From an uncultured Phocaeicola sp. (lineage in GTDB: Bacteria > Bacteroidota > Bacteroidia > Bacteroidales > Bacteroidaceae), in assembly GCA_944320845.1 (NCBI GenBank), contig CALUJA010000015.1, positions 532-64,531 on the forward strand: 64,000 bases of DNA, read 5' to 3'. Below, piece after piece: positions 4,170 to 45,690 of this stretch (within the stretch, counting starts at the first letter, position 1; every line of letters begins with the position of its first letter). The position numbers and the translations under genes are program-made. A model generated the notes under the pieces. That model saw only the letters and a list, made by a program, of their open reading frames with translations. It had not been told where the DNA came from and ran no database searches.

Positions 4170-4235
4170 CGGATGAAACCTCGCTTTCATCAGGGCAAGA
4201 CACGGTTTCCGACAGCATGAAACCCGATTTTCAAC
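4170..4235. repeat. Degenerate 21-22 bp-period GAAAC/GTTTC intergenic array, copy A
   Basis: TTTC ends at 4188, 4209, 4232; CAAGACACGGTTT.CCGACA is shared with the copy at ~15893. Confidence 0.7.
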
Positions 4236-4294
4236 GGCACAAGCCACACGGATGCAAGAACCAGACAGAAGCCGGACTTAATAACAACCACCGG

Positions 4295-5551
4295 ATGAAA
4301 GAATTTGTAATATCAAAAGCACAGACAGAAAGAGCGGTTCTCGTCGGTCTGATTACACAGACCCAGAACGAACGCAAGACCAATGAATATCTGGACGAAC
4401 TGGCCTTCCTGGCCGAAACGGCCGGAGCCGAGGTAATAAAGCGCTTTACCCAGAAGCTTGACTCGCCCAACTCCGTCACTTACGTAGGAAAAGGCAAGCT
4501 TCAGGAAATAAAGGAATATCTCGCCGCTGCGAATGAAAGTGAAGAGACGGAAGTGGGAATGGTCATCTTCGACGATGAACTTTCCGCCAAGCAGCTCCGC
4601 AACATCGAAAAGGAGCTGAACGTGAAGATTCTCGACCGAACCTCCCTGATTCTGGACATTTTCGCCATGCGGGCCCAGACCGCCAACGCCAAAACGCAGG
4701 TGGAACTGGCACAATACAAGTATATGCTCCCGCGGCTGCAACGGCTTTGGACGCACTTGGAACGACAAGGAGGCGGCTCCGGAGCAGGAGGCGGCAAGGG
4801 TTCGGTAGGACTCCGCGGCCCGGGTGAAACCCAGCTCGAGATGGACCGCCGTATCATCCTTAACCGCATGTCGCTGCTCAAGCAGCGCCTGGCGGAAATC
4901 GATACCCAAAAAACCACACAGCGCAAGAACCGCGGGCGGCTGATACGTGTCGCCTTGGTGGGATATACCAACGTAGGAAAATCTACCCTGATGAATCTGC
5001 TGGCCAAGAGCGAGGTCTTTGCCGAAAACAAGCTGTTTGCCACGCTCGACACCACCGTGCGCAAGGTCATTATCGAGAACCTTCCCTTCCTTTTGTCAGA
5101 CACGGTAGGATTTATCCGCAAGCTCCCCACCGATTTGGTCGATTCATTCAAGTCGACCCTCGACGAAGTACGCGAGGCTGACCTGCTTGTTCATGTGGTC
5201 GACATCTCACATCCCGACTTTGAGGAGCAGATACAAGTGGTAGACAAGACTGTCGCCGACCTCGGCGCAGGCGGGAAACCGACCATTATCGTCTTCAACA
5301 AAATTGACGCCTACACTTACATCGAAAAGGCGGAAGATGACCTGACTCCAAAAACCAAGGAGAACATCACTCTGGATGAACTGATGAAAACCTGGATGGC
5401 CAAGCTCAACGAAAACTGCATCTTCATCTCCGCGCGAAACAAAACCAACATCGAGGAACTGAAGACACTATTATATAATAAAGTAAAAGAACTTCACGTG
5501 CAGAAATACCCGTACAACGATTTTCTGTACCAGACCTATGACGAGGAATGA
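4295..5551 (+). CDS. hflX: GTPase HflX
   Basis: GPGETQLEMDRR, GYTNVGKS, DTVGF, NKID motifs; start moved to MKEFVIS at 4295. Confidence 0.97.
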   Translation: MKEFVISKAQTERAVLVGLITQTQNERKTNEYLDELAFLAETAGAEVIKRFTQKLDSPNSVTYVGKGKLQEIKEYLAAANESEETEVGMVIFDDELSAKQLRNIEKELNVKILDRTSLILDIFAMRAQTANAKTQVELAQYKYMLPRLQRLWTHLERQGGGSGAGGGKGSVGLRGPGETQLEMDRRIILNRMSLLKQRLAEIDTQKTTQRKNRGRLIRVALVGYTNVGKSTLMNLLAKSEVFAENKLFATLDTTVRKVIIENLPFLLSDTVGFIRKLPTDLVDSFKSTLDEVREADLLVHVVDISHPDFEEQIQVVDKTVADLGAGGKPTIIVFNKIDAYTYIEKAEDDLTPKTKENITLDELMKTWMAKLNENCIFISARNKTNIEELKTLLYNKVKELHVQKYPYNDFLYQTYDEE

Positions 5552-7545
5552 CTATGAAACGATACCGACCGCTCAGCGAAACTGAAATTTCGCAATTAGA
5601 AAACCAGCACTGCATCGCTGCAGACTGGAGTGACGTGGAGGTGGCAGAAAACTTCAACACCGCCCACATCCACCATACACGCTTCTCGGGAAAAGTCCGC
5701 TTAGGCGTATTCGAAGGAGAATTCAAGCTTGCCGGCGGAATGACCAAGCACGCCGGACTGCTTTATGTCACACTCCACAACGTGACTGTAGGCGACAACT
5801 GCTGCATCGAGAATGTAAAAAACTATATCGCCAATTACGAAATCGGCGAACATACGTTCATCGAAAACGTTGACATCATCCTGGTAGACAAAAAGAGCAA
5901 GTTCGGAAACGGTGTGGAAGTATCCGTGCTGAACGAAACCGGCGGCCGGGAAGTTGTCATCCACGACCGTCTGTCCGCACACCAGGCCTATATCATGGCA
6001 CTGTACCGCCATCGTCCGGAACTCACCGAGCGCATGAGGCAAATCATCTGTACGTATGCGGAAGAGACGGCATCAGAAACCGGAACCATCGGACACCATG
6101 TCACCATCGTAGATGCAGGCTACATCAAGAACGTACGCATCGGAGACTATTGCAAGATAGAAGGAGCCGGACGACTGAAGAACGGCAGCATAAACAGTAA
6201 TGAATACGACCCAGTGCATATAGGATACGGCGTGATTTGCGATGACTTCATCATCTCCAGCGGCTCGCATGTGGAAGACGGAACGATGCTGACCCGGTGT
6301 TTTGTAGGGCAAGCCTGTCATCTCGGCCACAACTATTCGGCTTCCGACTCGCTTTTCTTCAGCAACTGTCAGGGGGAAAACGGTGAGGCATGCGCTATCT
6401 TTGCCGGGCCGTTTACCGTCACCCACCACAAGTCAACGCTGCTGATAGCCGGCATGTTCTCGTTTATGAACGCCGGATCGGGGTCAAACCAGAGCAACCA
6501 CATGTACAAGCTGGGCCCTATCCATCAGGGAGCGCTGGAACGCGGGGCAAAGACTGCCTCCGACTCCTACATTCTGTGGCCCGCCCGCATCGGGGCCTTC
6601 TCGCTTGTTATGGGAAGACACGTGGCACACCCGGACACTTCCAATCTTCCCTTTTCCTACCTGATAGAGGAAAAGAACACAACCTTTCTCGTGCCGGGAG
6701 TCAACCTGCGCAGCGTGGGCACCATACGCGACGCACAAAAGTGGCCAAAGCGCGATTTGCGGAAAGACCCGAACCGTCTTGACCAGATAAACTACAATCT
6801 GCTGAGTCCGTATACCATCCAAAAGATGATGGCCGGCCGGAATATCCTGCAGGAACTGGCCCGCGTGTCAGGAGAAACCTCGGATACCTACTCGTTCCAA
6901 AGCGCCAAAATCAAGAACTCGTCGCTGAACAAAGGCATCCACTTCTATGAAACAGCCATCCATAAATTTTTGGGGAACTCTGTCATCAAGCGGCTTGAAG
7001 CCATCCGCTTCGGGAGTGACGAGGAGATTCGCGAGCGACTGAAGCCTGATACCCCCATCGGGACGGGAGAATGGGTTGACATATCCGGCTTGATAGCCCC
7101 GAAGAGTGAGATAGAACGGCTGATGACAGACATCGAAAGCGGAGAACTGAACAATGTAAACCTCATTCACGACCGCTTCGCCGACATGCATGCCCACTAT
7201 TATACCTACGAATGGACATGGGCATACGAAAAGATGCTGGAGTTTTACGGCCTTCAGCCCGACACGATAACGGCAAAGGATATAGCCGCCATCGTCGAAC
7301 GGTGGAAGGAAGCCGTGGTATGGCTCGACCGTATGGTCTATGAGGATGCAAAAAAAGAATTTTCCCTGAGCTCCATGACCGGATTCGGCGCAGACGGCAG
7401 CAAGGAAGAACAGATGCGCGACTTCGAGGAAGTGCGCGGAGTGTTTGAAAGCAATCCGTTTGTGACGGCAGTCATCGAGCATATAAAAATAAAGACGGAG
7501 CTTGGCAACGAACTAATCGAGCGCTTAGGCAATCTGCTGGGATAA
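5548..7545 (+). CDS. DUF4954 family protein (left-handed beta-helix-like N-terminal half)
   Basis: Hexapeptide-like repeats (VTVGDNCCIENV, VRIGDYCKIEGA) and GSGSNQSNHMYKLGP motif; ATGA overlap with hflX stop. Confidence 0.85.
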   Translation: MTMKRYRPLSETEISQLENQHCIAADWSDVEVAENFNTAHIHHTRFSGKVRLGVFEGEFKLAGGMTKHAGLLYVTLHNVTVGDNCCIENVKNYIANYEIGEHTFIENVDIILVDKKSKFGNGVEVSVLNETGGREVVIHDRLSAHQAYIMALYRHRPELTERMRQIICTYAEETASETGTIGHHVTIVDAGYIKNVRIGDYCKIEGAGRLKNGSINSNEYDPVHIGYGVICDDFIISSGSHVEDGTMLTRCFVGQACHLGHNYSASDSLFFSNCQGENGEACAIFAGPFTVTHHKSTLLIAGMFSFMNAGSGSNQSNHMYKLGPIHQGALERGAKTASDSYILWPARIGAFSLVMGRHVAHPDTSNLPFSYLIEEKNTTFLVPGVNLRSVGTIRDAQKWPKRDLRKDPNRLDQINYNLLSPYTIQKMMAGRNILQELARVSGETSDTYSFQSAKIKNSSLNKGIHFYETAIHKFLGNSVIKRLEAIRFGSDEEIRERLKPDTPIGTGEWVDISGLIAPKSEIERLMTDIESGELNNVNLIHDRFADMHAHYYTYEWTWAYEKMLEFYGLQPDTITAKDIAAIVERWKEAVVWLDRMVYEDAKKEFSLSSMTGFGADGSKEEQMRDFEEVRGVFESNPFVTAVIEHIKIKTELGNELIERLGNLLG

Positions 7546-7562
7546 AAAGGAACGAATACGCC

Positions 7563-9113
7563 ATGAAACGAATCTTATGCATAGCAAGCCTGGCCGTGTT
7601 GCTCTGCCTGCCGGCGCGGCCGCAAGCCGGACATATCCACAAACGGACACTGGAGCATCCCGGCTTCATCACTTCCAACACATCGGAAATAGAAATCAGC
7701 CGAATCATTCTCTCCAGCGAACAGACGCAAGTGGATGCCGTAATCTACGGAAAGCCCGGCACGCCTGCCGTCATCTCGGACGATACCTACCTCAGAAGCG
7801 AGAAAAACAGCTTCCGCCTGAGGGAGGCCGAACATATCTCCATCGGCGGCACGACCGAACCCGAGACGATACCCGAAAACGGAAGGATGAACATCACCTT
7901 GTCGTTCGCTCCTATTCCGAGAGGCATACACGAAGTGGATTTGGTGGAAAAGGAATCCGGATGGAACATCTATGGCATCCAGCTCAGCCGAAAGGAACCC
8001 TACGTATATGTCCCCAACTTCCTGCTGCCGTCTGCCGCCGGAGAGACACCCGAACTGCCCGAACCGGGCCTTTTCGCGGGGAAAGCCATCATAAACGGAT
8101 ACATTCTGGGCTATGACCCGCGTCTGGAGCTCGACATGCAGCTTTCTTACAGCGACATGCTCTTTCCAAAACCGTGGACAAGCAGGATAACCGTGCGTCA
8201 GGACGGCTCATTCCATGCAGAAGTCGAGATGATAAAGCCCGATACGGTGCATCTTTCCGTCAACAGGGCGGCACTGACACTCTTTTTGGTACCGGGCGAA
8301 GAAACGACTGCCTATATCCATCTGCCCCGTTTGAGCGTATCAGCCGTCCGTTTGGCAAGGGGAAAAAGCAAGAACGAGCAGAAGGCATGGTTTGACGGAG
8401 CCGCTGAAATCATCAATACGGAACTGGCAACGACCGGCACATCGCGGGCACTCGACGCTTACCGTCTGGCGGAAAAAGACCTTATGCAGAACCAAACGGT
8501 CGCTGCCGCATTGGACAAAGACATTCAGGCCGTGCGCCCGCTGTGCGAACGCATGCTGCAAGACGCCGCGCTGACCACGGCCGACCGCAAGCTGCTCAGG
8601 TCGCTGACCTTTGACGACATCGGCAAATACATCGAACAAAAGAGCAATGCCCTGCGGCTTGAAGCCGCCCGCAGCGAATCGTCCCGCGAAGCGGTGATAG
8701 CCACGCTCGACGAAAAAGTTTCCGGCTCGGACATCCTGCCCCGAATCATTGCTCCCCACCGCGGAAGAGCCATACTGATTGACTTCTGGGCCACGTGGTG
8801 CGGGCCGTGCCGAAAGAGTATCCCGGCCATGCGCCCGCTGCGGAAGAAACTGGCATCGAAAGACATCGTATACATTTATCTGACCGGCCCGTCTTCTCCC
8901 GAGAAGGAATGGAGGGAGACACTGAGCCAGATGACCGGCGTGCACTTCCGCCTTACAGAAGAGCAGTGGAAAACGCTCTGTTCGTCCTACGGCATCACCG
9001 GCATTCCCGCCTATCTGGTCATCAGCCACGACGGCAAGCTGAAAAGCCGGCACGTAGGCTATCCCGGTACGGATGTGCTGGAAAAAGACCTGCTCCGCGC
9101 GGCGGAAGAATAA
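7563..9113 (+). CDS. Exported TlpA-family thiol-disulfide oxidoreductase with large N-terminal domains
   Basis: Signal peptide; C-terminal DFWATWCGPC thioredoxin fold. Confidence 0.88.
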   Translation: MKRILCIASLAVLLCLPARPQAGHIHKRTLEHPGFITSNTSEIEISRIILSSEQTQVDAVIYGKPGTPAVISDDTYLRSEKNSFRLREAEHISIGGTTEPETIPENGRMNITLSFAPIPRGIHEVDLVEKESGWNIYGIQLSRKEPYVYVPNFLLPSAAGETPELPEPGLFAGKAIINGYILGYDPRLELDMQLSYSDMLFPKPWTSRITVRQDGSFHAEVEMIKPDTVHLSVNRAALTLFLVPGEETTAYIHLPRLSVSAVRLARGKSKNEQKAWFDGAAEIINTELATTGTSRALDAYRLAEKDLMQNQTVAAALDKDIQAVRPLCERMLQDAALTTADRKLLRSLTFDDIGKYIEQKSNALRLEAARSESSREAVIATLDEKVSGSDILPRIIAPHRGRAILIDFWATWCGPCRKSIPAMRPLRKKLASKDIVYIYLTGPSSPEKEWRETLSQMTGVHFRLTEEQWKTLCSSYGITGIPAYLVISHDGKLKSRHVGYPGTDVLEKDLLRAAEE

Positions 9114-9114
9114 G

Positions 9115-9141
9115 TCAGGGATGAAAACGGTTCATCCCTGA
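9115..9141. terminator. Hairpin between convergent genes, overlapping yaaA stop
   Basis: TCAGGGATGAA..TTCATCCCTGA perfect 11-bp stem. Confidence 0.7.
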
Positions 9142-9899
9142 TTTACAAAGACCATCCGCCCGCCGACGCTTGCAGCCTCATCATAGGCAAAGCCCTCCCA
9201 CCCGAAGGCTTTCAGGTCTTCCGCCCGCTCAATGCGCCGCTTGAGAATGTACCGCGTCATTTCTCCCCGGCACATCTTGGCATAAACCACCACCGTAACC
9301 AGGCGATTGCCTTTCCTCACATAAAATTCAGGCGTCACCACCTGCACTTCACCGCATACCTTCTTCCAGTCGAAAAGTTCCTTCATCTCTCCGCTTGCCA
9401 GATTGACCAGCACATTCCCCTTGCTTCTGACCTCCCCGACAAGGAAATCCGTCAGCAGAGGCTTCCAAAAATCAAACATGGTCACATCCCCGCGCTCCGG
9501 AAGCCGCACATCGCCTTCCATCCGGTAGTTCCGGATTCCGTCCAACGGGCGGAGCAGCCCATAAAGGAAAGAGGCAATCAGCAGATGCTCTTGCGCATAA
9601 ACGAAATCTTCCTCCGTAAAATCCTGCGGATGAATCCGCTTGAACACGATTCCCGTATAGGCAGCCAGGGCGGGAAGACAAGGCTCGCCGGGAGAAAGAA
9701 AGTCATGATACCGCAAACGGTTCTCAGCCGCCAGCTTCGGACTGATTCGCAAAAGCTTTTCCAGCTCTTCCGCGCCGAACTGCACCATTGCCATCGCGTT
9801 TTCACGCGCCTCCGTCTCAAAGCGGGGCACAGACACAAAAGGAAAAGTCAGGCGCGAACGTGCCGTCATGGTCTTGGCACACGATATGAAAGTCATCAT
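9132..9899 (-). CDS. yaaA: YaaA/DUF328 peroxide stress protein
   Basis: ISCAKTM, SFLYGLLRPLD, YRMEG, LVNLAS.E, YAKMCRG motifs. Confidence 0.93.
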   Translation of the reverse strand: MMTFISCAKTMTARSRLTFPFVSVPRFETEARENAMAMVQFGAEELEKLLRISPKLAAENRLRYHDFLSPGEPCLPALAAYTGIVFKRIHPQDFTEEDFVYAQEHLLIASFLYGLLRPLDGIRNYRMEGDVRLPERGDVTMFDFWKPLLTDFLVGEVRSKGNVLVNLASGEMKELFDWKKVCGEVQVVTPEFYVRKGNRLVTVVVYAKMCRGEMTRYILKRRIERAEDLKAFGWEGFAYDEAASVGGRMVFVNQG

Positions 9900-9930
9900 A
9901 AGTTCATCGTTTTTTCGTTAATTCTTTCTA

Positions 9931-9978
9931 CAAAGATACGTTTCCCCACGGATATTTCTCCAGAATCCAGTATCTTTG
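9931..9978. promoter_or_regulatory. Divergent -7 boxes for yaaA (9931-9938, -) and tlpA (9971-9978, +)
   Basis: TATCTTTG on each strand. Confidence 0.7.
9943..9957 (+). repeat. 15-bp direct repeat, copy 1 (copy 2 at 12186-12200)
   Basis: TCCCCACGGATATTT identical at both sites. Confidence 0.8.
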
Positions 9979-10006
9979 TCTTCAGAAACCCCTAAAAACA
10001 ACCGTT

Positions 10007-10510
10007 ATGAAATCATTGAAAACATGGAGCTTTCTGACGATGCTCCTGATTGCCGTGTGCGGACATGCACAGACCGAGAAAATTGCCATAGGCGACCCTA
10101 TGCCCGCCATCAGTCTCAACTCAGAGATATACGGCGACATAACGCCCGCCGACCTGAAGGGAAAAGTCGTTCTCATAAGCCTGTTCGCCACCTGGTGCCC
10201 GCCCTGCCAGCTCGAACTGGCAGAAGTGGAAAAGACGCTTTATCCGAAATACAAAGACAACCCTTCCTTCAGACTGCTTGTCATAGGCCGCGAGCACACC
10301 GATGCCGAGCTGAAGAAGTATAACGAACGCAAGAAATTCTCTTTCCCCCTTTACCCCGACCCCAAGCGCAAGGTCTTCTCGCTCTTTGCCGACCAGACTA
10401 TTCCCCGCGCCTACTTGTTCGGGAAAGACGGAAAGCTGATTTACACTTCTTCCGGCTTCAAGAAAGAAGAATTCCAGACACTGATGAAAAAAATTTCTGA
10501 AGCACTGTAG
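10007..10510 (+). CDS. TlpA/AhpC-TSA family redoxin
   Basis: Signal peptide, FATWCPPC motif. Confidence 0.9.
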   Translation: MKSLKTWSFLTMLLIAVCGHAQTEKIAIGDPMPAISLNSEIYGDITPADLKGKVVLISLFATWCPPCQLELAEVEKTLYPKYKDNPSFRLLVIGREHTDAELKKYNERKKFSFPLYPDPKRKVFSLFADQTIPRAYLFGKDGKLIYTSSGFKKEEFQTLMKKISEAL

Positions 10511-10637
10511 CCGGCAAGTCTCCAGCCATAAGGAAAAAGTCCAAGGGGAAAAGAAAGTTCCATCCGGAAAAGCAACGGCAGATTCAAGTACTGCCCGCCA
10601 TAACCATATTATAAAAAAACGCAAGAACGAAATATCC

Positions 10638-11531: not shown

Positions 11532-11569
11532 CACATCGTCCCTCCAAAAAGGATTTTGATGCAGGCACG

Positions 11570-11595
11570 CCGTCCGTTTCAAGCGGATGAAACAA
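11570..11595. repeat. GTTTCA-N6-TGAAAC unit of the intergenic array family
   Basis: CCGTTTCAAGCGGATGAAAC, close to TTTTCAAGCGGACGAAAC at 38163. Confidence 0.55.
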
Positions 11596-12147: not shown

Positions 12148-12185
12148 CTGTTATCGTCTTTATCAAAGAATGCCGTCCCATGAAA

Positions 12186-12200
12186 TCCCCACGGATATTT
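12186..12200 (+). repeat. 15-bp direct repeat, copy 2
   Basis: Identical to 9943-9957. Confidence 0.8.
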
Positions 12201-12230
12201 TCAGGACACACGGCAAACACGGCATAAACA

Positions 12231-12275
12231 TAGGCGTGGATTACGCCGAGCCTTGTTCCACATAATCCACGCCTA
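12231..12275 (-). terminator. Hairpin downstream of M23 peptidase
   Basis: TAGGCGTGGATTA..TAATCCACGCCTA 13-bp stem. Confidence 0.75.
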
Positions 12276-12299
12276 AGCCAACTCTTCAGAGTCACTGTA

Positions 12300-13405: not shown

Positions 13406-13450
13406 ATCTACTGTAAAACAAAACATTTCAACACCCAAACTTTTCCCTGC

Positions 13451-15892: not shown

Positions 15893-15960
15893 AAGACACG
15901 GTTTGCCGACATGAAACTGCCGTCCCGTCAAGAAGAAACTTTTGTTTCATGCCGGCAAAG
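15893..15960. repeat. Intergenic array copy B with a long inverted repeat
   Basis: TTTGCCGACATGAAAC..GTTTCATGCCGGCAAA; GAAAC at 15913 and 15935. Confidence 0.75.
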
Positions 15961-16703: not shown

Positions 16704-16732
16704 AATCGTAATTCTTATCGTTTTGACTTTAT

Positions 16733-23791: not shown

Positions 23792-23923
23792 TGTTCATAA
23801 ACATGGCGGGAATATTCTTTCGGGGAGACTTATCAACACATTTATTTTACTGATTGCCAAACCAATATTGAGTTATCAACCGAAAAGAAGAAAGCTGTTA
23901 ATAACTTTTCAACCTGTTGATAA
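23792..23923. promoter_or_regulatory. Cluster of six DnaA-box-like 9-mers
   Basis: TTATGAACA(-,23792), TTATCAACA(+,23830), TTATCAACC(+,23873), TTATTAACA(-,23896), TTTTCAACC(+,23906), TTATCAACA(-,23915). Confidence 0.65.
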
Positions 23924-23971
23924 CTTGATTTCTCATCAGGCTTCCGGCTTTTTCCCCCTCATACGGGGCTG

Positions 23972-24003
23972 CAAAGATACAACTTTTTCCGGAAAGACCA
24001 CAA
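23972..24003 (-). promoter_or_regulatory. Orphan sigmaA promoter firing leftward into a non-coding region
   Basis: Minus strand TTG-N21-TATCTTTGCA; only 8- and 12-codon ORFs seen just downstream and no ORF-track minus ORF before the cdaA stop. Confidence 0.7.
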
Positions 24004-24034
24004 TGATGCCTCAATTCTGCCCCGCAATATTTTT

Positions 24035-24151
24035 TGTTTTTCACATTCCCGGCAAAGGTTTTTCCATTGCCTCCCAGATTTTTTCTAAGGAGAAAAATCA
24101 GTTTTCTCAGGAGGAAAAACTTTTTTCACGAGGGCATGCGATTCTTCTTTC
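24035..24151. repeat. Intergenic array copy with 21-bp period
   Basis: TTTTC ends at 24042, 24064, 24085, 24106, 24127. Confidence 0.7.
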
Positions 24152-24179
24152 CAGCAAGAAATCAAGCCGGTAACCGACT

Positions 24180-30470: not shown

Positions 30471-30535
30471 GTTTTCATACAGGCCAGACGCCGGTTTCAT
30501 CCGGACGAAACCGGCGTCTCATGCCGTCACAAACT
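30471..30535. repeat. Intergenic array copy with 22-bp period
   Basis: TTTC/TCTC ends at 30476, 30498, 30520; AGACGCCGGTTTC..GAAACCGGCGTCT hairpin. Confidence 0.7.
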
Positions 30536-32803: not shown

Positions 32804-33061
32804 CTTTTTACTCGTTTGCTCATGACCTCTGCCCGGTTTGAAAGCAAGATGCTTCCTCCCGGTTCCGATTCATGACATTATGATGCAAATATAACTTTTC
32901 TCTTTGAAATGCAGTCCGTTTTTTTCAAAAAAGGGAAAATTCCGTTTTGCAGGCATCCGGCCGCGCCCGCATCAGCATCAGACCGGCATTTATTTCTCAC
33001 CAAAAAATTTCCGATTCCAGTTTTTATTTTTATCTTTGTAAGAAACTAAAACTTTTCAGTC

Positions 33062-33292
33062 ATGAAAGAAGCTGCTTATGATTCATTGGTAGAAGTTTTC
33101 CGAGGGAATCTCTGGGAAGCGGAAGTAGTCAAAGGACTGTTACAGTCTGCCGGCGTGGAAGCGATGATTAAAGACCAGTCCATCGGTGCCGTATCGTCTC
33201 CCTATCTTGACAGCGGAGGAAACGTTCTGGTCATGGTCAACAAGGAAGAAGAAGTATACGCAAAAAAGGTAGTGGCAGAGAAACATCCATGA
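33062..33292 (+). CDS. DUF2007/putative signal-transducing small protein
   Basis: WEAEVVKGLLQSAGVEA pattern; -7 box at 33031-33038. Confidence 0.75.
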   Translation: MKEAAYDSLVEVFRGNLWEAEVVKGLLQSAGVEAMIKDQSIGAVSSPYLDSGGNVLVMVNKEEEVYAKKVVAEKHP

Positions 33293-34788: not shown

Positions 34789-38085
<3,297 letters not shown>

Positions 38086-38104
38086 AGACAAGCCCGAGGG
38101 CACA

Positions 38105-38185
38105 TCTGTCTCAAACAGTTTTTCACCGCGCCGATAAAACGGTTTCACCTTTCAGAAATCCTTTTTCAAGCGGACGAAACGCCGG
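38105..38185. repeat. Intergenic array copy with 21-22 bp period
   Basis: TTTC ends at 38124, 38146, 38167. Confidence 0.65.
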
Positions 38186-38260
38186 GCAAGACAGCAGAAG
38201 GACTCAAAACGACGGTACAGACCGACGGAAAGAGAACGGCACCCTCCATAAACGAATGCG

Positions 38261-38327
38261 GAAGACTGCATCAAGACAAGAAGACAGACACCCTTTCCGT
38301 CTCTTCTTCTGTCTCGATGCAGTTTTC
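38261..38327. terminator. Long imperfect hairpin downstream of the beta-galactosidase
   Basis: GAAGACTGCATC..GATGCAGTTTTC closing stem with inner AAGAAGA/CTTCTT pairing. Confidence 0.6.
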
Positions 38328-38470
38328 TTATGAAAAGACAGACAGACCTCCAGTCTTTAAAGCCCTCAGACCCGCTTCTGACCCAAGTTTAGATTATTTA
38401 TAAGGAAATAAAAGAAGATTTTTTGGATAAAATAAATAATTCTTCGTATCTTTGTCGCCCGGTTTATAGC

Positions 38471-39037
38471 ATGGTGAAAGTGGGAGAACTCAATACATAT
38501 AAGGTAGAACTGAAAAACATGCGTGAGGATTCATGCCTGTATGAATACACGCTGGACAGTCAATTCTTTGCAGACATAGAAGCTCCGGATGTGCGGAAAG
38601 GCAATCTGACCGTAACTCTCTCCGTGAGAAAAACCGGAGGAGCCTATGCCTTGAGTTTTCATACAGAAGGAACCGTGACCGTTCCCTGCGACCGCTGCCT
38701 GGACGACCTGGAACTTCCGGTGGAAACCGACGACAGACTGATAGTAAAGTTAGGCACAGACTTTGCAGAAGAGGAGGATATCATAACCGTGCCGGAAGAA
38801 GACGGATACATCAATGTGGGATGGTACATTTATGAGTTCATCATGCTCAGCCTCCCGATAAAGCATGTACACGCTCCGGGAGAATGCAACGCAGCGATGA
38901 CCGAGATACTGAGCCGGCACTTGGCTACCGAAACGGCGGAAGAGACCGACCCTTCTGACGAAGAGGAAGACACAACGGGGAATGGGGACATAGATCCGCG
39001 ATGGAATGATTTAAGGAAAATATTAGATAATAATTAA
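38471..39037 (+). CDS. yceD: YceD/DUF177 family protein (start may be GTG 38480)
   Basis: CDRCLD, LSLPIKHVH, DPRW motifs; upstream of rpmF; -7 box at 38447-38454 lies inside the ORF-track extension. Confidence 0.92.
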   Translation: MVKVGELNTYKVELKNMREDSCLYEYTLDSQFFADIEAPDVRKGNLTVTLSVRKTGGAYALSFHTEGTVTVPCDRCLDDLELPVETDDRLIVKLGTDFAEEEDIITVPEEDGYINVGWYIYEFIMLSLPIKHVHAPGECNAAMTEILSRHLATETAEETDPSDEEEDTTGNGDIDPRWNDLRKILDNN

Positions 39038-39052
39038 ATAAAGTTTAGAAAA

Positions 39053-39238
39053 ATGGCACATCCTAAAAGAAGACAGTCAAAAACGAGAACTGCCAAAAGA
39101 AGAACTCATGACAAGGCAGTTGCTCCAACTTTAGCCATCTGCCCCAACTGCGGCGCTTGGCACGTTTATCACACAGTTTGTGGAGCTTGCGGTTACTATA
39201 GAGGCAAGGTTGCAATCGTAAAAGAAGCAGCCCTCTAA
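39053..39238 (+). CDS. rpmF: 50S ribosomal protein L32
   Basis: MAHPKRRQSKTR, CPNC..CGAC zinc motif. Confidence 0.98.
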   Translation: MAHPKRRQSKTRTAKRRTHDKAVAPTLAICPNCGAWHVYHTVCGACGYYRGKVAIVKEAAL

Positions 39239-39283
39239 CAAGAACGCTTTACCGCGACACATTTTGTGTCGGTGAAAGAAACA

Positions 39284-39322
39284 AAGCCGGAGAGCCATTC
39301 GGCTCTGTCGGCTTCTTTTTTT
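39284..39322 (+). terminator. Intrinsic terminator/attenuator between rpmF and fabH
   Basis: AAGCCG.AGAGCC..GGCTCT..CGGCTT followed by a T tract. Confidence 0.75.
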
Positions 39323-39341
39323 GGAAATTATCAAACTAGGA

Positions 39342-40346
39342 ATGATGGAAAAGATCAATGCAGTAATTACAGGAGTCGGTGGATATGTACCCGACTATGT
39401 CTTGACAAACGACGAGTTGTCAAGGATGGTTGACACCAACGATGAGTGGATTATGACCCGTATCGGCGTCAAAGAAAGACGCATCCTTAATGAAGAAGGT
39501 CTGGGAACCTCGTACATGGCGCGCAAAGCAGCCAAGCAACTGATGCAAAAGACTAACTCAGACCCCGATTCCATCGATTGCGTCATTGTCGCAACAACTA
39601 CTCCGGACTATCATTTCCCTTCCACCGCTTCTATTCTATGCGACAAACTGGGACTTAAGAACGCATACGCATTCGATATGCAAGCTGCATGCAGCGGTTT
39701 CCTTTATGCAATGGAGACGGCCGCCTGCATGATCCAGTCAGGCAGACACAAGAAAGTAATCATTGTAGGTGCAGACAAGATGTCTTCGATGGTCAACTAT
39801 TCCGACCGTGCGACTTGTCCAATCTTCGGTGACGGCGCTGCCGCCTGCATGGTTGAAGCGACAACGGAAGACTACGGTATAATGGATTCCATTTTGCGTA
39901 CTGACGGAAAAGGGCTTCCATTCCTTCATATGGCAGCGGGAGGCTCTGTCTGTCCTCCTTCCTACTTTACTATCGCAAACAAGATGCACTATCTGCATCA
40001 GGAAGGAAGGACAGTATTCAAGTATGCCGTTTCCAACATGTCGGACGTTACTGCCGCAATCGCAGCGAAGAACAATCTGAACAAAGATAATATCGACTGG
40101 ATTGTTCCCCATCAAGCCAATCTGCGCATCATTGATGCCGTAGCTTCACGCCTTGAGGTGCCTTTGGACAAAGTTATGGTCAATATCCAACGTTATGGCA
40201 ATACCAGTGCGGGAACTCTTCCCCTTTGTCTGTGGGACTACGAAAAGCAGCTGAAGAAAGGAGACAATATTATCTTCACCGCATTTGGTGCCGGATTCAC
40301 CTGGGGAGCCACTTATGTAAAGTGGGGTTACGACGGAAGCAAATGA
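39342..40346 (+). CDS. fabH: 3-oxoacyl-ACP synthase III
   Basis: AACSGF, HQAN, YGNTS catalytic triad. Confidence 0.97.
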
Positions 40347-40378
40347 CCAAGAACAGAATAAAATCAAACTTGCATACG

Positions 40379-40409
40379 AAAAACGCATCCCAACCCGATG
40401 CGTTTTTTT
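40379..40409. terminator. Terminator between fabH and era
   Basis: AAAAACGCATC..GATGCGTTTTTTT. Confidence 0.8.
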
Positions 40410-40433
40410 GTCTGCACCAAAGAAATAAAAATT

Positions 40434-41315
40434 ATGCACAAAGCCGGATTTGTTAATATCGTAGGAAATCCGAATGTAGGAAAGTCCACTTTGATGAATT
40501 TGCTCGTGGGAGAACGCATTTCCATCGCCACATTCAAAGCACAGACTACCCGCCACCGCATCATGGGAATACTCAATACGGAAGACATGCAAATAGTCTT
40601 TTCGGATACTCCCGGCGTCCTGAAGCCCAACTACAAGCTGCAAGAGTCGATGCTGAACTTTTCAGAATCCGCGTTGGCCGATGCAGACATTCTGCTTTAT
40701 GTGACCGACACGGTGGAAAAGCCGGACAAAAACTCCGACTTCATCAGCAAGGTAGAAAAATTGGATATACCCGTTCTGCTGCTTATCAATAAAATCGACC
40801 TGAGTAATCAAGAGGCACTGACAAAATTAGTAGAGGACTGGCACCAGATTTTGCCGCAATCAGAAATCATTCCGATATCGGCAAAAGCAAAATTTAATAT
40901 TGATGCCGTGATGAAACGGATTAAGGATTTGCTTCCCGACTCACCTCCCTATTTCGGGAAAGACCAGTGGACAGACAAGCCGGCACGCTTCTTTGTGACG
41001 GAAATCATCCGCGAAAAAATCCTGCTGTATTATGACAAGGAGATTCCCTACTCCGTGGAAGTGGTGGTGGAGCAGTTCAAGGAGACCCCGAAGAATATTC
41101 ACATCAACGCTGTCATCTACGTGGAACGCGAATCGCAAAAGGGGATTATCATCGGTCATCAAGGGAAAGCGCTGAAGAAAGTAGCGACCGAAGCCCGCAG
41201 AACATTAGAGCATTTCTTCCAGAAGTCCATATATCTGGAAACTTTTGTAAAGGTTGATAAAGACTGGAGGAACTCAGATAAAGAACTTAAGAACTTTGGC
41301 TATCAATTGGATTAA
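40434..41315 (+). CDS. era: GTPase Era
   Basis: [22 protein letters not shown] domain. Confidence 0.98.
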
Positions 41316-41347
41316 TCCGGCTGCGAAGCCGCAAAACAATAACAAAT

Positions 41348-42661
41348 ATGGGAAACTTAGTAGCAATTGTGGGACGCCCCAATGTGGGAAAGTCGACACT
41401 GTTTAACCGTCTGACCCAAACGCGTCAGGCAATCGTCAATGAACAGGCCGGTACAACCCGCGACCGCCAGTATGGAAAATGCGAATGGTTAGGAAAAGAA
41501 TTCTCTATCGTCGATACCGGAGGATGGGTGGTCAATTCCGACGACATTTTTGAAGAGGAGATACGCAAGCAAGTGATGCTTGCCATCGATGAAGCGGATG
41601 TTATCCTGTTCGTGGTTGACATTGCAAACGGAGTGACAGATCTGGACATGGATGTGGCCAACATACTGCGCCGCTCAAAAACGCCCGTAATCGTAGTCAC
41701 CAACAAAGCGGACAATAACAATCTGCTCTATAATGCCGCCGAGTTTTATTCGCTCGGCTTGGGAGATCCGTACAGTATCTCGGCGATGAGCGGAAGCGGA
41801 ACAGGCGAGCTGCTGGACGCGATCTTAAGCAAATTCAAAAAGAAGGCCGAAGAAATATTAGACGATGAAATCCCCCGCTTTGCCGTGGTGGGACGTCCGA
41901 ATGCAGGGAAGTCATCCATCATCAATGCCTTTATCGGGGAAGAGCGCAATATTGTAACCGAGATAGCCGGCACTACCCGCGACTCGATTTATACACGATA
42001 CAACAAATTCGGATTCGAGTTCTATCTGGTGGATACCGCCGGAATACGCAAAAAGAACAAGGTTTCGGAAGACCTGGAATACTATTCCGTTATCCGTTCC
42101 ATCCGGGCCATTGAAAATTCGGATGTATGCATCCTGATGCTGGATGCCACCCGCGGCATCGAAGGACAGGATCTCAACATCTTTTCACTGATTCAGCGCA
42201 ATCAGAAAGGCCTGGTGGTAGTGGTCAACAAATGGGATTTGATAGAGGAAAAGACCAACAAAATAATGAAAGGATACGAGGATGCCATCCGCAAGCGCCT
42301 GGCCCCGTTTACGGACTTCCCTATCATATTCACTTCCGCACTGACCAAACAGCGCATATTCAAAGTATTGGAAACCGCCCAGGAAGTATACAAGGCACGC
42401 ACTCTCCGCATTCCTACCGCCCGGCTGAACGAGGAACTGCTGCCGTTAATCGAGGCCTACCCGCCTCCTTCAAACAAGGGAAAATATATTAAGATTAAGT
42501 ATATCACCCAGCTTCCCAATACACGGATACCGTCTTTCGTATTCTTCGCCAATCTGCCTCAATATGTAAAAGAGCCTTACCGCCGCTTTTTGGAGAACAA
42601 GATACGCGAACGGTGGAAACTGTCTGGTACTCCAGTAAACATATTCATTCGTCAGAAATGA
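41348..42661 (+). CDS. der: Ribosome biogenesis GTPase Der/EngA
   Basis: Two G domains ([16 protein letters not shown]), C-terminal KH-like domain. Confidence 0.98.
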
Positions 42662-42666
42662 CAGAA

Positions 42667-42700
42667 AGACGGCCCGGAATCTCAATATTCCGGGCCGTCT
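42667..42700. terminator. Hairpin between convergent der and mlaF
   Basis: AGACGGCCCGGAAT..ATTCCGGGCCGTCT 14-bp stem. Confidence 0.85.
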
Positions 42701-42727
42701 GCCGTTATTGACATTCAGTCTGAAGCC

Positions 42728-43495
42728 TTATCCCTTTTCCTTTGTCTCTTCCGCCTTGACTTTCCGCAGCAGGTCTGAAGCGAAAATAAAGTTGTTCAGG
42801 CGCTCATTGGTCGCCGTAAAGACATCATCCTTCGTCCCCTCCCACTCTTTGTGTCCCTGATAGATATAAAGAATGCTTTCTCCTATACCCATCACCGAGT
42901 TCATGTCGTGTGTATTGATGATGGTGGTCATGTTATATTCCGTTGTGATGCCGTGAATCAGCTCGTCTATCACCAGCGAAGTCTTCGGGTCAAGGCCTGA
43001 ATTCGGCTCGTCGCAAAAGAGATACTGCGGTTGCAGCACGATGGCGCGCGCTATTGCCACACGCTTCTGCATGCCCCCGCTTATTTCTCCCGGATATTTG
43101 TTCTGGGCATCTATCAGGTTCACACGGTCAAGACAGAACTGTGCCCGCTTTACCCGCTCCCGATAGGTGGCATTCGAAAACATGTCGAGCGGAAACATCA
43201 CGTTTTCCAATACGGAAAGCGAGTCAAACAACGCCGCGCTCTGAAAAATCATCCCCATTTCCCGGCGCAGAGCCTGCTTCTCTTTCTTTCCCATATGGAT
43301 AAAGTCACGCCCGTCATAAAGCACCTCCCCCTTTTCCGGGGTAAGAAGCCCCACGATGCACTTCATCAGCACGGTTTTTCCCGAGCCGCTCTGACCGATT
43401 ATCAGGTTGGTCTTCCCATTCTCAAAAGAGAAATTTATGTTATCGAGGACTGTACGCCCTTCAAACGCCTTGCTTACAGATTTCAGTTCTATCAT
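42728..43495 (-). CDS. MlaF-like ABC ATP-binding protein
   Basis: GQSGSGKT, ISGGMQKRVAIARA, FCDEPNSGLDP. Confidence 0.93.
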   Translation of the reverse strand: MIELKSVSKAFEGRTVLDNINFSFENGKTNLIIGQSGSGKTVLMKCIVGLLTPEKGEVLYDGRDFIHMGKKEKQALRREMGMIFQSAALFDSLSVLENVMFPLDMFSNATYRERVKRAQFCLDRVNLIDAQNKYPGEISGGMQKRVAIARAIVLQPQYLFCDEPNSGLDPKTSLVIDELIHGITTEYNMTTIINTHDMNSVMGIGESILYIYQGHKEWEGTKDDVFTATNERLNNFIFASDLLRKVKAEETKEKG

Positions 43496-44235
43496 CCCAT
43501 TAACAATTGAGTAAGTATTAGGTCGGAAAACAATATCAACACACTGCTTGACACCACCGAATCCGTACTTGCCTTACCCACGGCGATGGAACCGCCCTCT
43601 ACTGTATAGCCGAAGTAGGCGGAAACGCTCGCGATGATGAAGGCAAAAAACAGCGACTTGATGAAGCTGCACCAGATATACCATTCCACAAACATGTATT
43701 GCAAGCCGTATTCCAGGTCGGTGGCATTCATAATCCCGCCGAACCAAGCCGTACAAAAGGCGCCGAATATGCCCGCAAAGATGCTGAACACCACAAGAAA
43801 GGGAATCATCGTCATCAGTCCCAGAATTTTCGGAAGGATAAGATACGAGGCGGAATTGATTCCCATGATTTCCAGAGCGTCAATCTGCTGGGTGACACGC
43901 ATCGTCCCGATTTCGGAAGCGATGTTCGAGCCGACTTTCCCGGCCAGAATAAGACACATGATGGAAGAAGAAAATTCCAGCAAAAGGATTTCACGCGTGG
44001 TATACCCCACCACAAAGCGCGGCATCCACGGACTTTCGATATTCAGCTTAATCTGAATGCAGATTACCGCACCGATAAAAAACGATATGAGCAGGACAAT
44101 GCCGATAGAATTGATTCCCAACTGGGCCATTTCACTCACATACTGCTTGAAATACATGCGGAACCGCTCAGGACGGGCAAAGACCCTTCGCATCAGCAGG
44201 AGGTATTGTCCTAAAGTAGTGATTGGCTTAACCAT
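43492..44235 (-). CDS. MlaE family ABC permease
   Basis: GSNIASEIGTMRVTQQIDAL motif; ORF-track start lies in a -7 box (44259-44266), so start set at 44235. Confidence 0.93.
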   Translation of the reverse strand: MVKPITTLGQYLLLMRRVFARPERFRMYFKQYVSEMAQLGINSIGIVLLISFFIGAVICIQIKLNIESPWMPRFVVGYTTREILLLEFSSSIMCLILAGKVGSNIASEIGTMRVTQQIDALEIMGINSASYLILPKILGLMTMIPFLVVFSIFAGIFGAFCTAWFGGIMNATDLEYGLQYMFVEWYIWCSFIKSLFFAFIIASVSAYFGYTVEGGSIAVGKASTDSVVSSSVLILFSDLILTQLLMG

Positions 44236-44376
44236 AATTTCCTCGGAATATTTTGTCACAAAAGTAAGGCTTTTTAGCTATATTATTATAAAAAGAGATG
44301 TGAAATTCACTTCAACAACCACATAACCCAAGTTTTTTACTACTTTTGCCGCAAGAAAGAAAACTCCTCATCAAGT

Positions 44377-45216
44377 ATGGCAGAAGAAATGCAACAGGAA
44401 AACGAAAAGTTCAAGCTACCCGAAGACGGCCGCATGGTGCTGCGCACGGAGAATCTGGTAAAGAAATACGGGAAACGCACCGTGGTAAGCCATGTTTCAA
44501 TCAACGTGAAGCAGGGGGAGATTGTGGGACTGCTCGGCCCGAACGGTGCCGGAAAGACCACTTCCTTCTATATGACTACGGGACTGATAGTACCCAACGA
44601 AGGGCACATCTATCTGAACGACCAGGACATCACCTCCTACCCGGTCTACAAGCGGGCGCAAAACGGCATCGGATACCTGGCACAAGAAGCGTCGGTATTT
44701 CGGAAAATGAGCGTGGAAGACAACATCGCCTCCGTTCTCGAGCTGACGGACAAGCCGAAAGAGTACCAAAAAGAAAAACTGGAAAGCCTGCTCAACGAGT
44801 TCCGCCTGCAAAAAGTGCGGAAGAACCTTGGAGACCAGCTTTCGGGCGGGGAACGCCGGCGGACTGAAATAGCGCGCTGTCTGGCCATCGACCCAAAATT
44901 CATTATGCTCGACGAGCCATTCGCCGGAGTCGACCCCATCGCGGTGGAAGATATCCAACATATTGTGTGGAGGCTGAAGTATAAGAACATCGGAATCCTG
45001 ATAACCGACCATAATGTGCAGGAAACGCTGAGTATCACCGACCGCGCCTACCTGCTGTTCGAAGGGAAAATCCTGTTTCAAGGGACTCCGGAAGAGCTTG
45101 CCGAAAACAAGATTGTCCGCGAGAAGTACCTGAGCAACAGCTTCGTGCTGCGCAGAAAGGATTTTCAGCTGAACGAACCGAAGGAGCAATCCGGCGCAGC
45201 AGCCGCCGCACGCTGA
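44377..45216 (+). CDS. lptB: LPS export ABC ATP-binding protein
   Basis: [32 protein letters not shown]; -7 box at 44341-44348. Confidence 0.96.
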
Positions 45217-45252
45217 CCGTGGCGCACCCTCACGCTTCCGCCCCGCGCCGCC

Positions 45253-45287
45253 GCCTGCACACAAGCGCCTTACGGTGCAGGCAAAAA
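45253..45287 (-). terminator. Terminator for DUF4250 gene
   Basis: GCCTGCAC..GTGCAGGC then A5 (T tract on minus strand). Confidence 0.7.
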
Positions 45288-45297
45288 CACCTTCTCC

Positions 45298-45474
45298 TTA
45301 CCAGAACTTGTTCTGCTCTTCGCTGTATTCAAATCCGGCTTCCTTCAGACGGCCTACAATCTCCGACTTGCTGACATGGAGGTCTTCACACAACGCGTCG
45401 AGTGAAGGATAAAAGTCACGCAGCTTCATGTTGATGACGCTGAAAAGCATCATCGGGTCTTTTGGCAATTCCAT
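45298..45474 (-). CDS. DUF4250 family small protein (58 aa, not in ORF track)
   Basis: Manual translation MELPKDPMMLFSVINMKLRDFYPSLDALCEDLHVSKSEIVGRLKEAGFEYSEEQNKFW; -7 box at 45502-45509. Confidence 0.9.
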   Translation of the reverse strand: MELPKDPMMLFSVINMKLRDFYPSLDALCEDLHVSKSEIVGRLKEAGFEYSEEQNKFW

Positions 45475-45599
45475 AGTCTGTAATCTTTTTCAAATGCGCC
45501 GCAAAGTTACGCTTTTTTCCAAACGGCTGTTCCCCTCCGTCCTTTCTTTGCCCGCATTTTATCAATATTTTACCAAAATCCGTCCTCCCCGACCCCGCC

Positions 45600-45690
45600 C
45601 GGCATGAAAGTCCCGTTTCGCCGCAAGGAAAAATCTTTTCCGCCGGCCCGAAAAACATTTTCCACCGCCGCCGCAATCTTCCCCCGCCGA
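45600..45690. repeat. Intergenic array copy with 21-22 bp period
   Basis: GAAA at 45606, 45628, 45650; TTTC ends at 45619, 45640, 45662. Confidence 0.7.

Follow-up and report, generated by a model that had tools for sequence, protein, structure and literature searches.

Phased GAAA/TTTC palindrome arrays dispersed in the intergenic DNA of a Phocaeicola-group genome and of other Bacteroidales

Described systems resembling the arrays

REP/BIME elements are short palindromic units that lie clustered and in alternating orientation in intergenic DNA. They are species-specific and patchy in related organisms, are at times transcribed in 3' UTRs and have been proposed as docking sites of proteins. 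Beside the RAYT-associated REPs of Enterobacteria and Pseudomonas, CGTC-type REPs without a dedicated transposase occur (PMC3733652). The arrays described here were found in a window (the whole stretch of 64,000 nucleotides that was analysed; positions refer to it) of the 2.8-Mb genome of a chicken-gut bacterium of the Phocaeicola group (G000), and the original prediction had called them REP/BIME-like. The resemblance extends to all of the traits named above, as the arrays are extragenic, high in copy number, clustered, alternating in orientation and variable between species. Strict membership does not follow from it. REP/BIME units measure 20–40 bp with spacers of 20–100 bp and carry a GTAG or CGTC tag, whereas the units of the arrays measure 14–16 bp, keep a strict 21–22-bp register and carry GAAAC/GTTTC; in addition, the array-rich genomes searched lack a RAYT, and no stem covariation occurs in G000. 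REP/BIME in the strict sense (REPtron) was rejected because both the RAYT and the 20–40-bp GTAG/CGTC palindrome are missing.

A literature search revealed no description of the array family, and the nearest analogue was BrickBuilt, a MITE/minisatellite of Porphyromonas gingivalis. Its direct repeats of 23 nt follow each other without spacers, as many as about 23 in one element, and the element also has a long leader, a long tail and terminal repeats of the IS5 type, GAGACCTTTGCA (PMC4596501). Both belong to Bacteroidales, are always intergenic, show a tandem repeat of about 22–23 nt with conserved and variable halves and encode no transposase; BrickBuilt reaches about 20 copies per genome. In contrast to BrickBuilt, the present units are palindromes with variable linkers, and just 2–5 of them form a locus. 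Sequences similar to the BrickBuilt terminal repeats gave nine matches in G000, one of which lay within 400 bp of an array. Membership was rejected because these repeats are not associated with the arrays, and because of the palindromic units and variable linkers.

CRISPR arrays were taken as repeats of 24–48 bp with unique spacers of 26–72 bp at one or few loci with cas genes. Units of 14–16 bp, linkers of 6–8 nt and about 45–130 loci of 2–5 units do not agree with this, and the CRISPR array of G000 itself (C12:48.9–57.4 kb) was left out of the analysis. Operators of ArgR, PurR, LexA, Rex, ParB/Noc and Lrp were rejected since the spacing is wrong or the loci are too many and spread over all spacer types. 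Intrinsic terminators, in which a GC-rich hairpin with an immediately adjoining U-tract marks the 3' end of a transcript, were rejected as well, because RNA reads through the array at 38121 to a separate hairpin and most arrays lack a T-run (C8:10187 excepted). Plasmid iterons were considered and dropped.

Phasing at two helical turns is known from the OxyR operator with its four half-sites, paired ARG boxes, the resolvase site res, the hix sites of Hin and 22-bp plasmid iterons. In such operators and recombination sites, half-sites spaced by about 10–11 or 21–22 bp lie on one helix face, and 60–120 bp are bound cooperatively. They occupy one or a few loci and have a dedicated function, whereas a single genome holds tens to hundreds of array loci, in every kind of spacer. 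By analogy, the hixL core GAAAAC-N4-GTTTTT and the core ARACGTWCGT of the B. fragilis Mpi inverted repeat may be compared with the array cores, which they seem to resemble.

Array grammar and the sites of the window

Half-sites were labelled A (GAAA) and T (TTTC). Gene calls were crude (longest ORF plus codon score), so that the intergenic classes are approximate. In the intergenic DNA of G000, the half-sites alternate at distances of about 10 and 12 bp with a fixed period of 22 bp. Genome-wide, GAAA was followed by GAAA at 22 bp in 68 cases (15 expected, z 14.7), TTTC by GAAA at 12 bp in 66 cases (16 expected) and GAAA by TTTC at 10 bp in 54 cases (16 expected); counts of GAAA-Nx-TTTC-Ny-GAAA were maximal along x+y=14. 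Forty-five chains had four or more half-sites (1.6 after dinucleotide shuffling), and 17 had five or more (0.03 after shuffling). The window held four chains of at least four half-sites (0.05 expected), a number reached in 0 of 300 shuffles, and none of 30 genome shuffles equalled the observed counts of G000. Controls with shifted spacing were flat, as was the reversed pattern AAAG/CTTT, a built-in control of the same composition. A dispersed, species-variable family of intergenic palindromes is borne out, and its 21–22-bp phasing exceeds that of shuffled DNA. The 5-mer GAAAC was barely enriched in intergenic DNA (965 vs 854); plain k-mer enrichment is thus uninformative, and the signal lies in phasing and not in word frequency.

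About 45 loci of G000 are clear and about 130 probable. Each is a tandem array of 2–5 units with a period of two helical turns, and the unit is a palindrome, (T/G)GAAA(C/A)-N4-6-(G/T)TTTC(A/C), followed by a linker of about 8 nt (range 6–8 nt) that is often GC-rich. The claimed richness in GC was borne out, with 53.5% in the linkers from TTTC to GAAA vs 43.5% in intergenic DNA; half-sites and inner segments (37% GC) thus alternate with GC-richer linkers at helical periodicity. The conserved part of the half-site is just (A)(T/G)GAAA(A/C), without a long shared body, and many copies read GAAAA or TTTTC. All-versus-all BLAST of the arrays yielded shared 15–18-mers only and no master copy, and conserved termini are absent from these heterogeneous arrays. 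Arrays were found in 16 convergent, 10 divergent and 28 tandem spacers, which argues against ordinary promoter operators.

Of the seven array sites originally listed in the window, all possess the half-sites at the coordinates given for them, and six are in-register arrays. Site 1 (4175..4232) has about three units with five exact half-sites (A4175, T4185, T4206, A4219 and T4229; register 10/21/13/10), the GAAA of the middle unit being degenerate. It lies between a SusD-like gene (end 4063) and hflX, which was identified by Pfam. The start of the hflX ORF (4217) falls within the array; the true start is probably ATG 4295 (MKEFVISK...), since the Pfam domain GTP-bdg_N starts at residue 57. Site 3 (15902..15948), 5' of an M28 peptidase gene (-) and 3' of an ABC ATPase gene (-), also has about three units (degenerate TTTG15902, GAAA15913, GAAA15935, TTTC15945). 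Sites 1 and 3 share the string CAAGACACGGTTT(G)CCGACA..ATGAAAC, with a 1-nt indel between the copies. Site 2 (11577..11592), between convergent pfkB-kinase and DUF4833 genes, is one TTTC-N8-GAAA unit (TTTCAAGCGGATGAAAC; T11577 and A11589, its two half-sites) and no array. It matches the unit at 38164 at 16 of 17 positions, and its membership in the family is doubtful. Both longer strings that had been reported as shared do exist, each just twice in the genome.

Site 4 (24039..24161), between convergent cdaA (+) and lrgB (-), is the longest array of the window, with 7–9 half-sites (GAGAAAAatcagTTTTCTC, GGAAAAActTTTTTC...): T24039, T24061, T24082, A24092, T24103, A24114 and T24124, and possibly T24148 and A24158. 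A 101-aa ORF spanning it (23868-24173) gave no Pfam match and is probably spurious. Site 5 (30473..30520), between convergent FKBP and carbamoyltransferase genes, has three in-register half-sites (T30473, T30495, A30507). Its TTTC-N8-GAAA unit forms the core of a palindrome with a 12-bp stem (GACGCCGGTTTC/GAAACCGGCGTC); its membership is ambiguous, and it may be a simple hairpin instead.

A GH2 beta-galactosidase gene carries site 6 (38121..38179) in its 3' UTR, 5' of a long hairpin (about 38270-38335). The site has four in-register half-sites (T38121, T38143, T38164, A38176) and, additionally, the out-of-register pair TTTC38150/GAAA38155. In three of four metatranscriptome runs, RNA contigs extended from the GH2 gene through the site and ended at 38246-38352 (low depth); the next transcript begins at about 38460-38483 in all four. 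Site 7 (45606..45662), between a DUF4250 gene (-) and the purB promoter (+), is the cleanest array of the window. Its three palindromes (GAAAgtcccgTTTC, GAAAaatctTTTC, GAAAaacatTTTC; half-sites A45606, T45616, A45628, T45637, A45650 and T45659) have centres spaced by 22 bp and GC-rich linkers. RNA contigs, at low metatranscriptome depth, started at 45781-45804 and did not cover it. A further weak chain of four half-sites at 33008..33100 (C15:33539-33631), in a spacer between divergent genes, overlaps a promoter as well as a start codon and is possibly due to chance.

Spread, strain variation and apparent constraint

The array family occurs in many, though not all, species of Bacteroidales, a span with species-specific cores that had not been foreseen. 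About 12–16 of 90 congeners, or about 15% of the species of the genus, are array-rich, with a patchy distribution, and the same architecture was found in at least eight further genera of the family and in several further families of the order. In some species, up to about 10% of the intergenic regions are marked by arrays. Common to different species are just the GAAA/TTTC half-sites and the register; inner and linker segments are homogenised inside a species and divergent among species. The core reads GGAAACGTACGTTTCC in the sister species G015 and G031 and TGAAACAnnTGTTTCA in the congener G014, and further variants occur in G227, G218, G142, G231 and genomes of other families. Neither cores nor termini of the G015 type were found in G000. 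Species do not share the positions of their arrays; the purB array, for example, is missing from the orthologous DUF4250-purB spacer of G014.

Within the source species, the purB array, the sole array compared across strains, is essentially invariant. It was identical in contigs from four metagenome studies, a fifth metagenome run differed by one G>A in a linker (45646), and no length or insertion polymorphism occurred across strains in the metagenomes examined. Five orthologous array pairs of G015 and G031 were compared in units that had been chosen because one genome of the pair has exact half-sites there. Differences amounted to 0 of 88 positions in half-sites, 1 of 53 in inner segments, 3 of 66 in linkers and 311 of 4885 in flanks; the cores (1 of 141 changed) thus contrast with flanks at 6.4% (Fisher p=0.002). 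From these five alignments, purifying selection seems to act on the cores, although gene conversion could be another source of their conservation.

A partner gene was sought in several ways. The original prediction had proposed to look for a RAYT near dense copies. PF01797 (RAYT, Y1_Tnp) did not occur in any of the four array-rich genomes searched (G000, G014, G015, G031), and the same search detected it in 14 of 16 genomes of other families and in control genomes. No RAYT-type gene is flanked by arrays in G000, where only an ABC transporter gene and hflX are. As had been stated, there is no transposase near the arrays. Around 13 arrays of G014 and G015, the recurrent neighbours were just spurious ORFs translating the arrays, so that no gene recurring beside arrays was found. 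The expectation that no named family applies also agrees with Rfam, where the window had no match at the gathering score and the arrays of G014 and G015 gave only chance miRNA-like matches (E<=1).

Explanations of the arrays

In our judgement, the best explanation, which stands at about even chances, is that the arrays are REP/MITE-like dispersed, phased docking sites for a DNA-binding protein on one helix face. They would act as double-stranded DNA. Because each half-site follows the previous one after about one turn of the helix and in the opposite orientation, several protein dimers could fit side by side on the same face. The docked protein would be sequence-specific and either architectural or recombinase- or transposase-like, and its binding may bend or wrap 60–110 bp. 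The arrays would be spread or renewed by lineage in the manner of REPs or MITEs and, once placed, retained through selection on their cores. Phased docking sites had been one suggestion of the original prediction; docking now appears favoured over hairpins by the absence of covariation in either linker of the G000 arrays and by the apparent purifying selection on cores.

A wider version of this explanation is put forward tentatively. Bacteroidales might share an undescribed recognition system, in which a conserved protein reads GAAA-N6-TTTC palindromes in 22-bp phase and lineage-specific repeat families would have repeatedly seeded arrays. Selection would keep these for an architectural, insulating or regulatory role, such as in the leader of hflX or 5' of purB. 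The protein could possibly be a factor that organises the nucleoid, or else a recombinase or transposase that has been domesticated.

It seems rather unlikely that the arrays function as REP-like hairpins of RNA or single-stranded DNA, in which the palindromes, once transcribed, would form structures that shield the 3' ends of mRNAs, make transcription pause or stop, or serve as substrates of a single-strand-specific enzyme. For the elements of G014 and G015, strong single-strand folding is indeed predicted (z -7.8 and -4.9), so that a hairpin or ssDNA role is conceivable there; several loci of G000 are long nested palindromes, of which C8:10187 has a T-run on its 3' side. Site 6 is transcribed, and in a manual tally the arrays tended to lie a little closer to the stop codon on their upstream side (median about 70 nt) than to the start codon on their downstream side (about 110–160 nt). 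However, folding is weak in G000 (median z -2.3), and covariation is nil beyond the 4–5-bp A/U-rich half-sites, which argues against selection for hairpins and for recognition of half-sites. Furthermore, the transcripts pass site 6 and reach the separate terminator hairpin, the purB array lies 5' of the transcription start, and neither a Y1/RAYT enzyme nor an Rfam family was found.

Selfish MITE-like repeats without host function, whose GAAAC tags bind a trans-acting transposase and whose copies in G000 are old and decaying, are similarly improbable. Such an origin would agree with the patchy distribution, the homogeneous species-specific variants, the differing positions between species and the heterogeneity in G000. 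Copies in G014 have discrete TIR-like ends (GTTTCACCCTGTTTC / GAAACTGCCTGAAAC) and a constant span of 104 bp. Arrays of G015 are bordered by symmetric T-run/A-run flanks with TA on both sides, which could be a duplication or just part of the core. However, the cores of orthologous arrays have changed far less than the flanks, which would not be expected of decaying copies. No kb-scale element with paired ends of the G014 type, which might be the autonomous partner, exists in G014, phage and plasmid collections contain no meaningful match, and the lack of RAYT and of insertion polymorphism at purB likewise speaks against this origin.

Intrinsic curvature by phased A/T tracts, favoured intergenically and without a dedicated partner, is very improbable. 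A- and T-tracts do recur about every helical turn between GC-richer linkers, and the frequent GAAAA/TTTTC half-sites would suit it. Against it, the G and C bounding the tracts are conserved, orientation alternates strictly, AAAG/CTTT is unenriched, and cores of the G015 type, in which the tracts are no longer than A3, are nevertheless highly conserved, as is their ACGT centre. Chance or a compositional artefact, to which the weakly enriched GAAAC and the marginal sites 2 and 5 might point, is refuted by the shuffles and flat controls and has a negligible probability.

Bacteroidales prevail in gut microbiomes, yet dispersed non-coding repeats have hardly been charted in them. The arrays follow a searchable grammar (GAAA-N6-TTTC-N8 at a 22-bp repeat) and are usable as species-specific markers. 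They also mislead ORF callers, as seen for the start of hflX and for the ORF of 101 aa at 23868. The apparently constrained cores imply a trans-acting partner which, once found, could bring to light a new layer of nucleoid organisation or of regulation, or else a new enzyme that mobilises repeats.

Half-sites and their phasing in the window and the genome

The original prediction of GAAA/TTTC half-sites at seven intergenic sites was confirmed by reading the sites and listing their half-sites. The sites begin at positions 4175 (between genes for a SusD-like protein and hflX), 11577 (pfkB kinase and DUF4833), 15902 (M28 peptidase and ABC ATPase), 24039 (cdaA and lrgB), 30473 (FKBP and carbamoyltransferase), 38121 (GH2 beta-galactosidase and YceD) and 45606 (DUF4250 and purB; flanking genes according to Pfam). 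At six of the seven, at least three half-sites share one register, with spacings of 9-11 bp from GAAA to TTTC, 11-13 bp from TTTC to GAAA and 21-23 bp between half-sites of the same orientation. The site at 11577 is a lone TTTC-N8-GAAA unit, and that at 30473 consists of three half-sites, its TTTC-N8-GAAA unit being situated within a palindrome with a 12-bp stem.

Some arrays overlap with predicted reading frames. The longest ORF of hflX starts at an ATG (4217) inside the first array, and the Pfam HflX N-domain begins only at residue 57. The second ATG at 4295 (MKEFVISK...) is more likely the true start, which would place this array in the leader and not in coding DNA. The longest array is spanned by an ORF of 101 amino acids (23868-24173), which had no match in the Pfam search and seems to be an artefact created by the repeat. 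Elsewhere in the genome, several other array loci are also hidden in doubtful ORFs or in ORFs whose starts were extended too far (e.g. C8:55360 and C6:55303).

The genome, in which the window corresponds to C15:532-64531, comprises 2.8 Mb in 36 contigs with roughly 50% GC; its purB product is 94% identical to the counterpart in Phocaeicola plebeius, and chicken-gut metagenomes from several studies share 93-99% of words with its sequence. Intergenic DNA was delimited by crude gene calls (longest ORFs with a codon-usage filter). A large CRISPR array outside the window (C12:48,987-57,371, about 130 repeats ending in ATTGAAAC) was left out of the intergenic analysis, because its repeats inflate genome-wide counts of the word GAAAC. 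Distance spectra of all intergenic DNA were compared to 60 dinucleotide shuffles and showed sharp maxima for pairs of GAAA spaced by 22 bp (68 where 15 were expected; z 14.7; echoed at 44 bp), for TTTC to TTTC at 21-23 bp, for GAAA to TTTC at 10 bp (54 versus 16) and for TTTC to GAAA at 12 bp (66 versus 16). Counts of three half-sites were in excess along the line x+y=14; hence, the sum of 22 bp is fixed and its partition floats by one base. Chains of exactly three half-sites (108 observed, 21.6 expected), of at least four (45 versus 1.6) and of at least five (17 versus 0.03) were all strongly over-represented in comparison to the shuffles. The window itself holds four chains of at least four half-sites, where 0.05 were expected and none of 300 shuffles reached this number. 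As a simple word, GAAAC is hardly enriched in the intergenic DNA, so that the signal lies in the phasing. Other over-represented intergenic words include TATCTTTG and TATATTTG, both of which conform to the -7 box of Bacteroidetes (TAnnTTTG).

Distribution and lineage-specific versions

Related genomes were screened with a three-half-site pattern, a shifted-spacing control and a reversed control (AAAG/CTTT) of the same composition. A large excess of the pattern over the shifted control was found in the genome studied here (100 versus 30) and in its congeners G014 (94 versus 22), G015 (125 versus 40) and G031 (109 versus 27), whereas most other genomes showed none. About 12-16 of 90 genomes of the genus are rich in arrays, as are genomes of at least eight other genera of the family (151 genomes screened). 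A stricter four-half-site pattern, with a background of 0-2 per genome, also flagged genomes in several other families of the order (e.g. G488 with 168 matches, and G346, G492, G450 and G250).

Each lineage possesses its own version. Half-sites of the present genome follow the profile (A)(T/G)GAAA(A/C), and typical units, i.e. palindromes GAAA...TTTC, are CATGAAAC...GTTTCATG or GGAAAAA...TTTTTCC. In G015 and G031 the core (half-sites and the inner segment between GAAA and TTTC) is GGAAACGTACGTTTCC, which is absent from the present genome; the linkers between TTTC and GAAA are variable, GC-rich and 6-8 nt long, and the array borders read TTTTTTA|CGTTTCC ... GGAAACG|TAAAAAA. G014 has the core TGAAACAnnTGTTTCA with semi-conserved linkers of 6 nt, and its elements, present in about 20-25 copies, show TIR-like ends (GTTTCACCCTGTTTC / GAAACTGCCTGAAAC) and a constant span of 104 bp; no kb-scale partner with these ends was found in G014. 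Further versions are TGAAAC-N4-GTTTC (G227), GAAAYRTAYRTTTC with an AAACAAT linker of 7 nt and a period of 21 bp (G218), GAAAA..TTTTC joined by GTCCGCAGA (G142), and a variable inner segment with conserved TTTCAACGTGTTGAAA (G231). What all lineages share is limited to the half-sites and the register. The core AAACGTACGT of G015 and G218 may resemble the repeat of the Mpi invertase of B. fragilis and the hix sites of Hin.

In another family of the order, a perfect tandem 22-mer (GAAACTTTTGTTTCATCGGCAT, at least four identical units; G523:C73:3060-3139) appears to stem from a recent expansion of a single unit by slippage. The reversed control AAAG-N7-9-CTTT-N5-7-AAAG was hugely over-represented in G138 and G119 (genus g24), G074, G051, G083, G085 and G272, with 443+443 matches versus 19 for the test pattern in G138, which suggests another phased repeat family in these genomes. 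A FopS-family sRNA (RF04319, 78.6 bits; L097:780-846, at about 962.9 kb of G015:C1) is located about 200 nt upstream of a G015 array.

Array anatomy, transcription and constraint

Different arrays of the genome have only 15-18-mers in common, and their comparison with each other revealed no conserved body or terminus. The two longer shared strings of the original prediction are both real, but each is a two-copy event. One of them, the segment CAAGACACGGTTT(G)CCGACA(gc)ATGAAAC, occurs at 4196-4226 and 15893-15919 in the same position within both arrays; this suggests one local duplication and is the only hint of copying between arrays in this genome. Of the arrays, 16 lie in convergent, 10 in divergent and 28 in tandem spacers, classes that account for 20%, 22% and 59% of intergenic length, respectively. 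Their occurrence in all three classes shows that they are not ordinary promoter operators; by a manual tally, they lie somewhat closer to upstream stop codons than to downstream starts.

In three of four metatranscriptome runs of low depth, contigs from the beta-galactosidase gene cross the array at 38121-38179 and end at 38246-38352; the following transcript begins at about 38460-38483 in each of the four. The contigs end at a long perfect hairpin (38270-38335, gcatcaagacaagaagacagac...gtctcttcttctgtctcgatgc) about 200 nt past the stop codon, which is probably where transcription truly terminates, after an unusually long 3' UTR. The array is thus 3'-UTR RNA and not the terminator. RNA contigs of purB start at 45781-45804 and leave the upstream array uncovered, which is weak evidence at a depth of 2-5x. 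The purB ORF was listed from a TTG at 45755, and the conserved protein begins at ATG 45806; between strains, the 5' UTR varies by +A or +AA in a homopolymer at 45799.

The purB array (45606-45662) is identical in contigs of four independent metagenome studies; a fifth run shows a single G>A at 45646, within a linker. G014 has the gene pair DUF4250-purB with a short spacer devoid of an array, and purB has other neighbours in P. plebeius and G015, so array positions are not conserved between species. G015 and G031 (about 87-96% identity at the compared loci) possess orthologous arrays with equal unit numbers. In five array pairs, 0 of 88 half-site positions, 1 of 53 inner-segment positions and 3 of 66 linker positions differ, compared to 311 of 4885 (6.4%) in the flanks including coding DNA (core versus flank, Fisher p=0.002, in a small sample with units picked for exact half-sites in G015). 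Once arrays are in place, their cores are hence under constraint or subject to homogenisation, and the linkers diverge about as fast as the flanks.

Possible function and origin

A dimeric or oligomeric protein may recognise the arrays as double-stranded DNA, sit on one face of the helix and bend or wrap 60-110 bp. Such docking is plausible because only half-sites and helical register are universal, AT-rich sites are interspersed with GC-richer linkers at intervals of about one turn (linkers 53.5% GC, inner segments 37%, intergenic DNA 43.5%), the cores are apparently under purifying selection, and the linkers of the present genome lack pairing covariation. In both kinds of linker, opposed positions pair no more than base frequencies predict, with a weak excess only at the first pair of TTTC-N8-GAAA (z 2.5).

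A rival reading is a role as hairpin in RNA or single-stranded DNA; it gains support from the copy transcribed within a 3' UTR and from the elements of G014 and G015, which fold strongly. In the present genome, single strands fold with only a modest advantage over shuffles (median z -2.3); together with the lack of covariation in the linkers, this indicates that the conserved feature is not a stem beyond the A/T half-sites of 4-5 bp. Purely selfish MITEs are disfavoured, since they do not account for the conservation of the cores. Unspecific DNA curvature is disfavoured as well, because conservation is specific to base and orientation and the reversed control was flat.

A REP/MITE-like amplification is suggested by the patchy distribution and by the species-specific homogeneity of the arrays. 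The original interpretation thus holds in part: the arrays are REP/BIME-like in kind, but not members of REP/BIME. A Y1_Tnp/RAYT transposase was found in none of the four array-rich genomes searched (the present one, G014, G015 and G031), the same search being positive in 14 of 16 genomes of other families and in control genomes. No gene was found to be flanked by arrays or to recur beside them; searches in Rfam yielded no matching family, those in phage and plasmid collections no meaningful match, and those in the literature no description of this family. The nearest analogues are BrickBuilt, a MITE of P. gingivalis with a 23-nt tandem repeat (PMC4596501), whose IS5-type terminal repeats showed no association with the arrays, and the CGTC REPs without transposase (PMC3733652).

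These observations show that the phased repeats are a real and abundant family across the Bacteroidales, whose variants are species-specific, whose cores are conserved and whose positions turn over from one species to the next. The family is of considerable interest because it is widespread, follows a simple grammar and shows signs of constraint.
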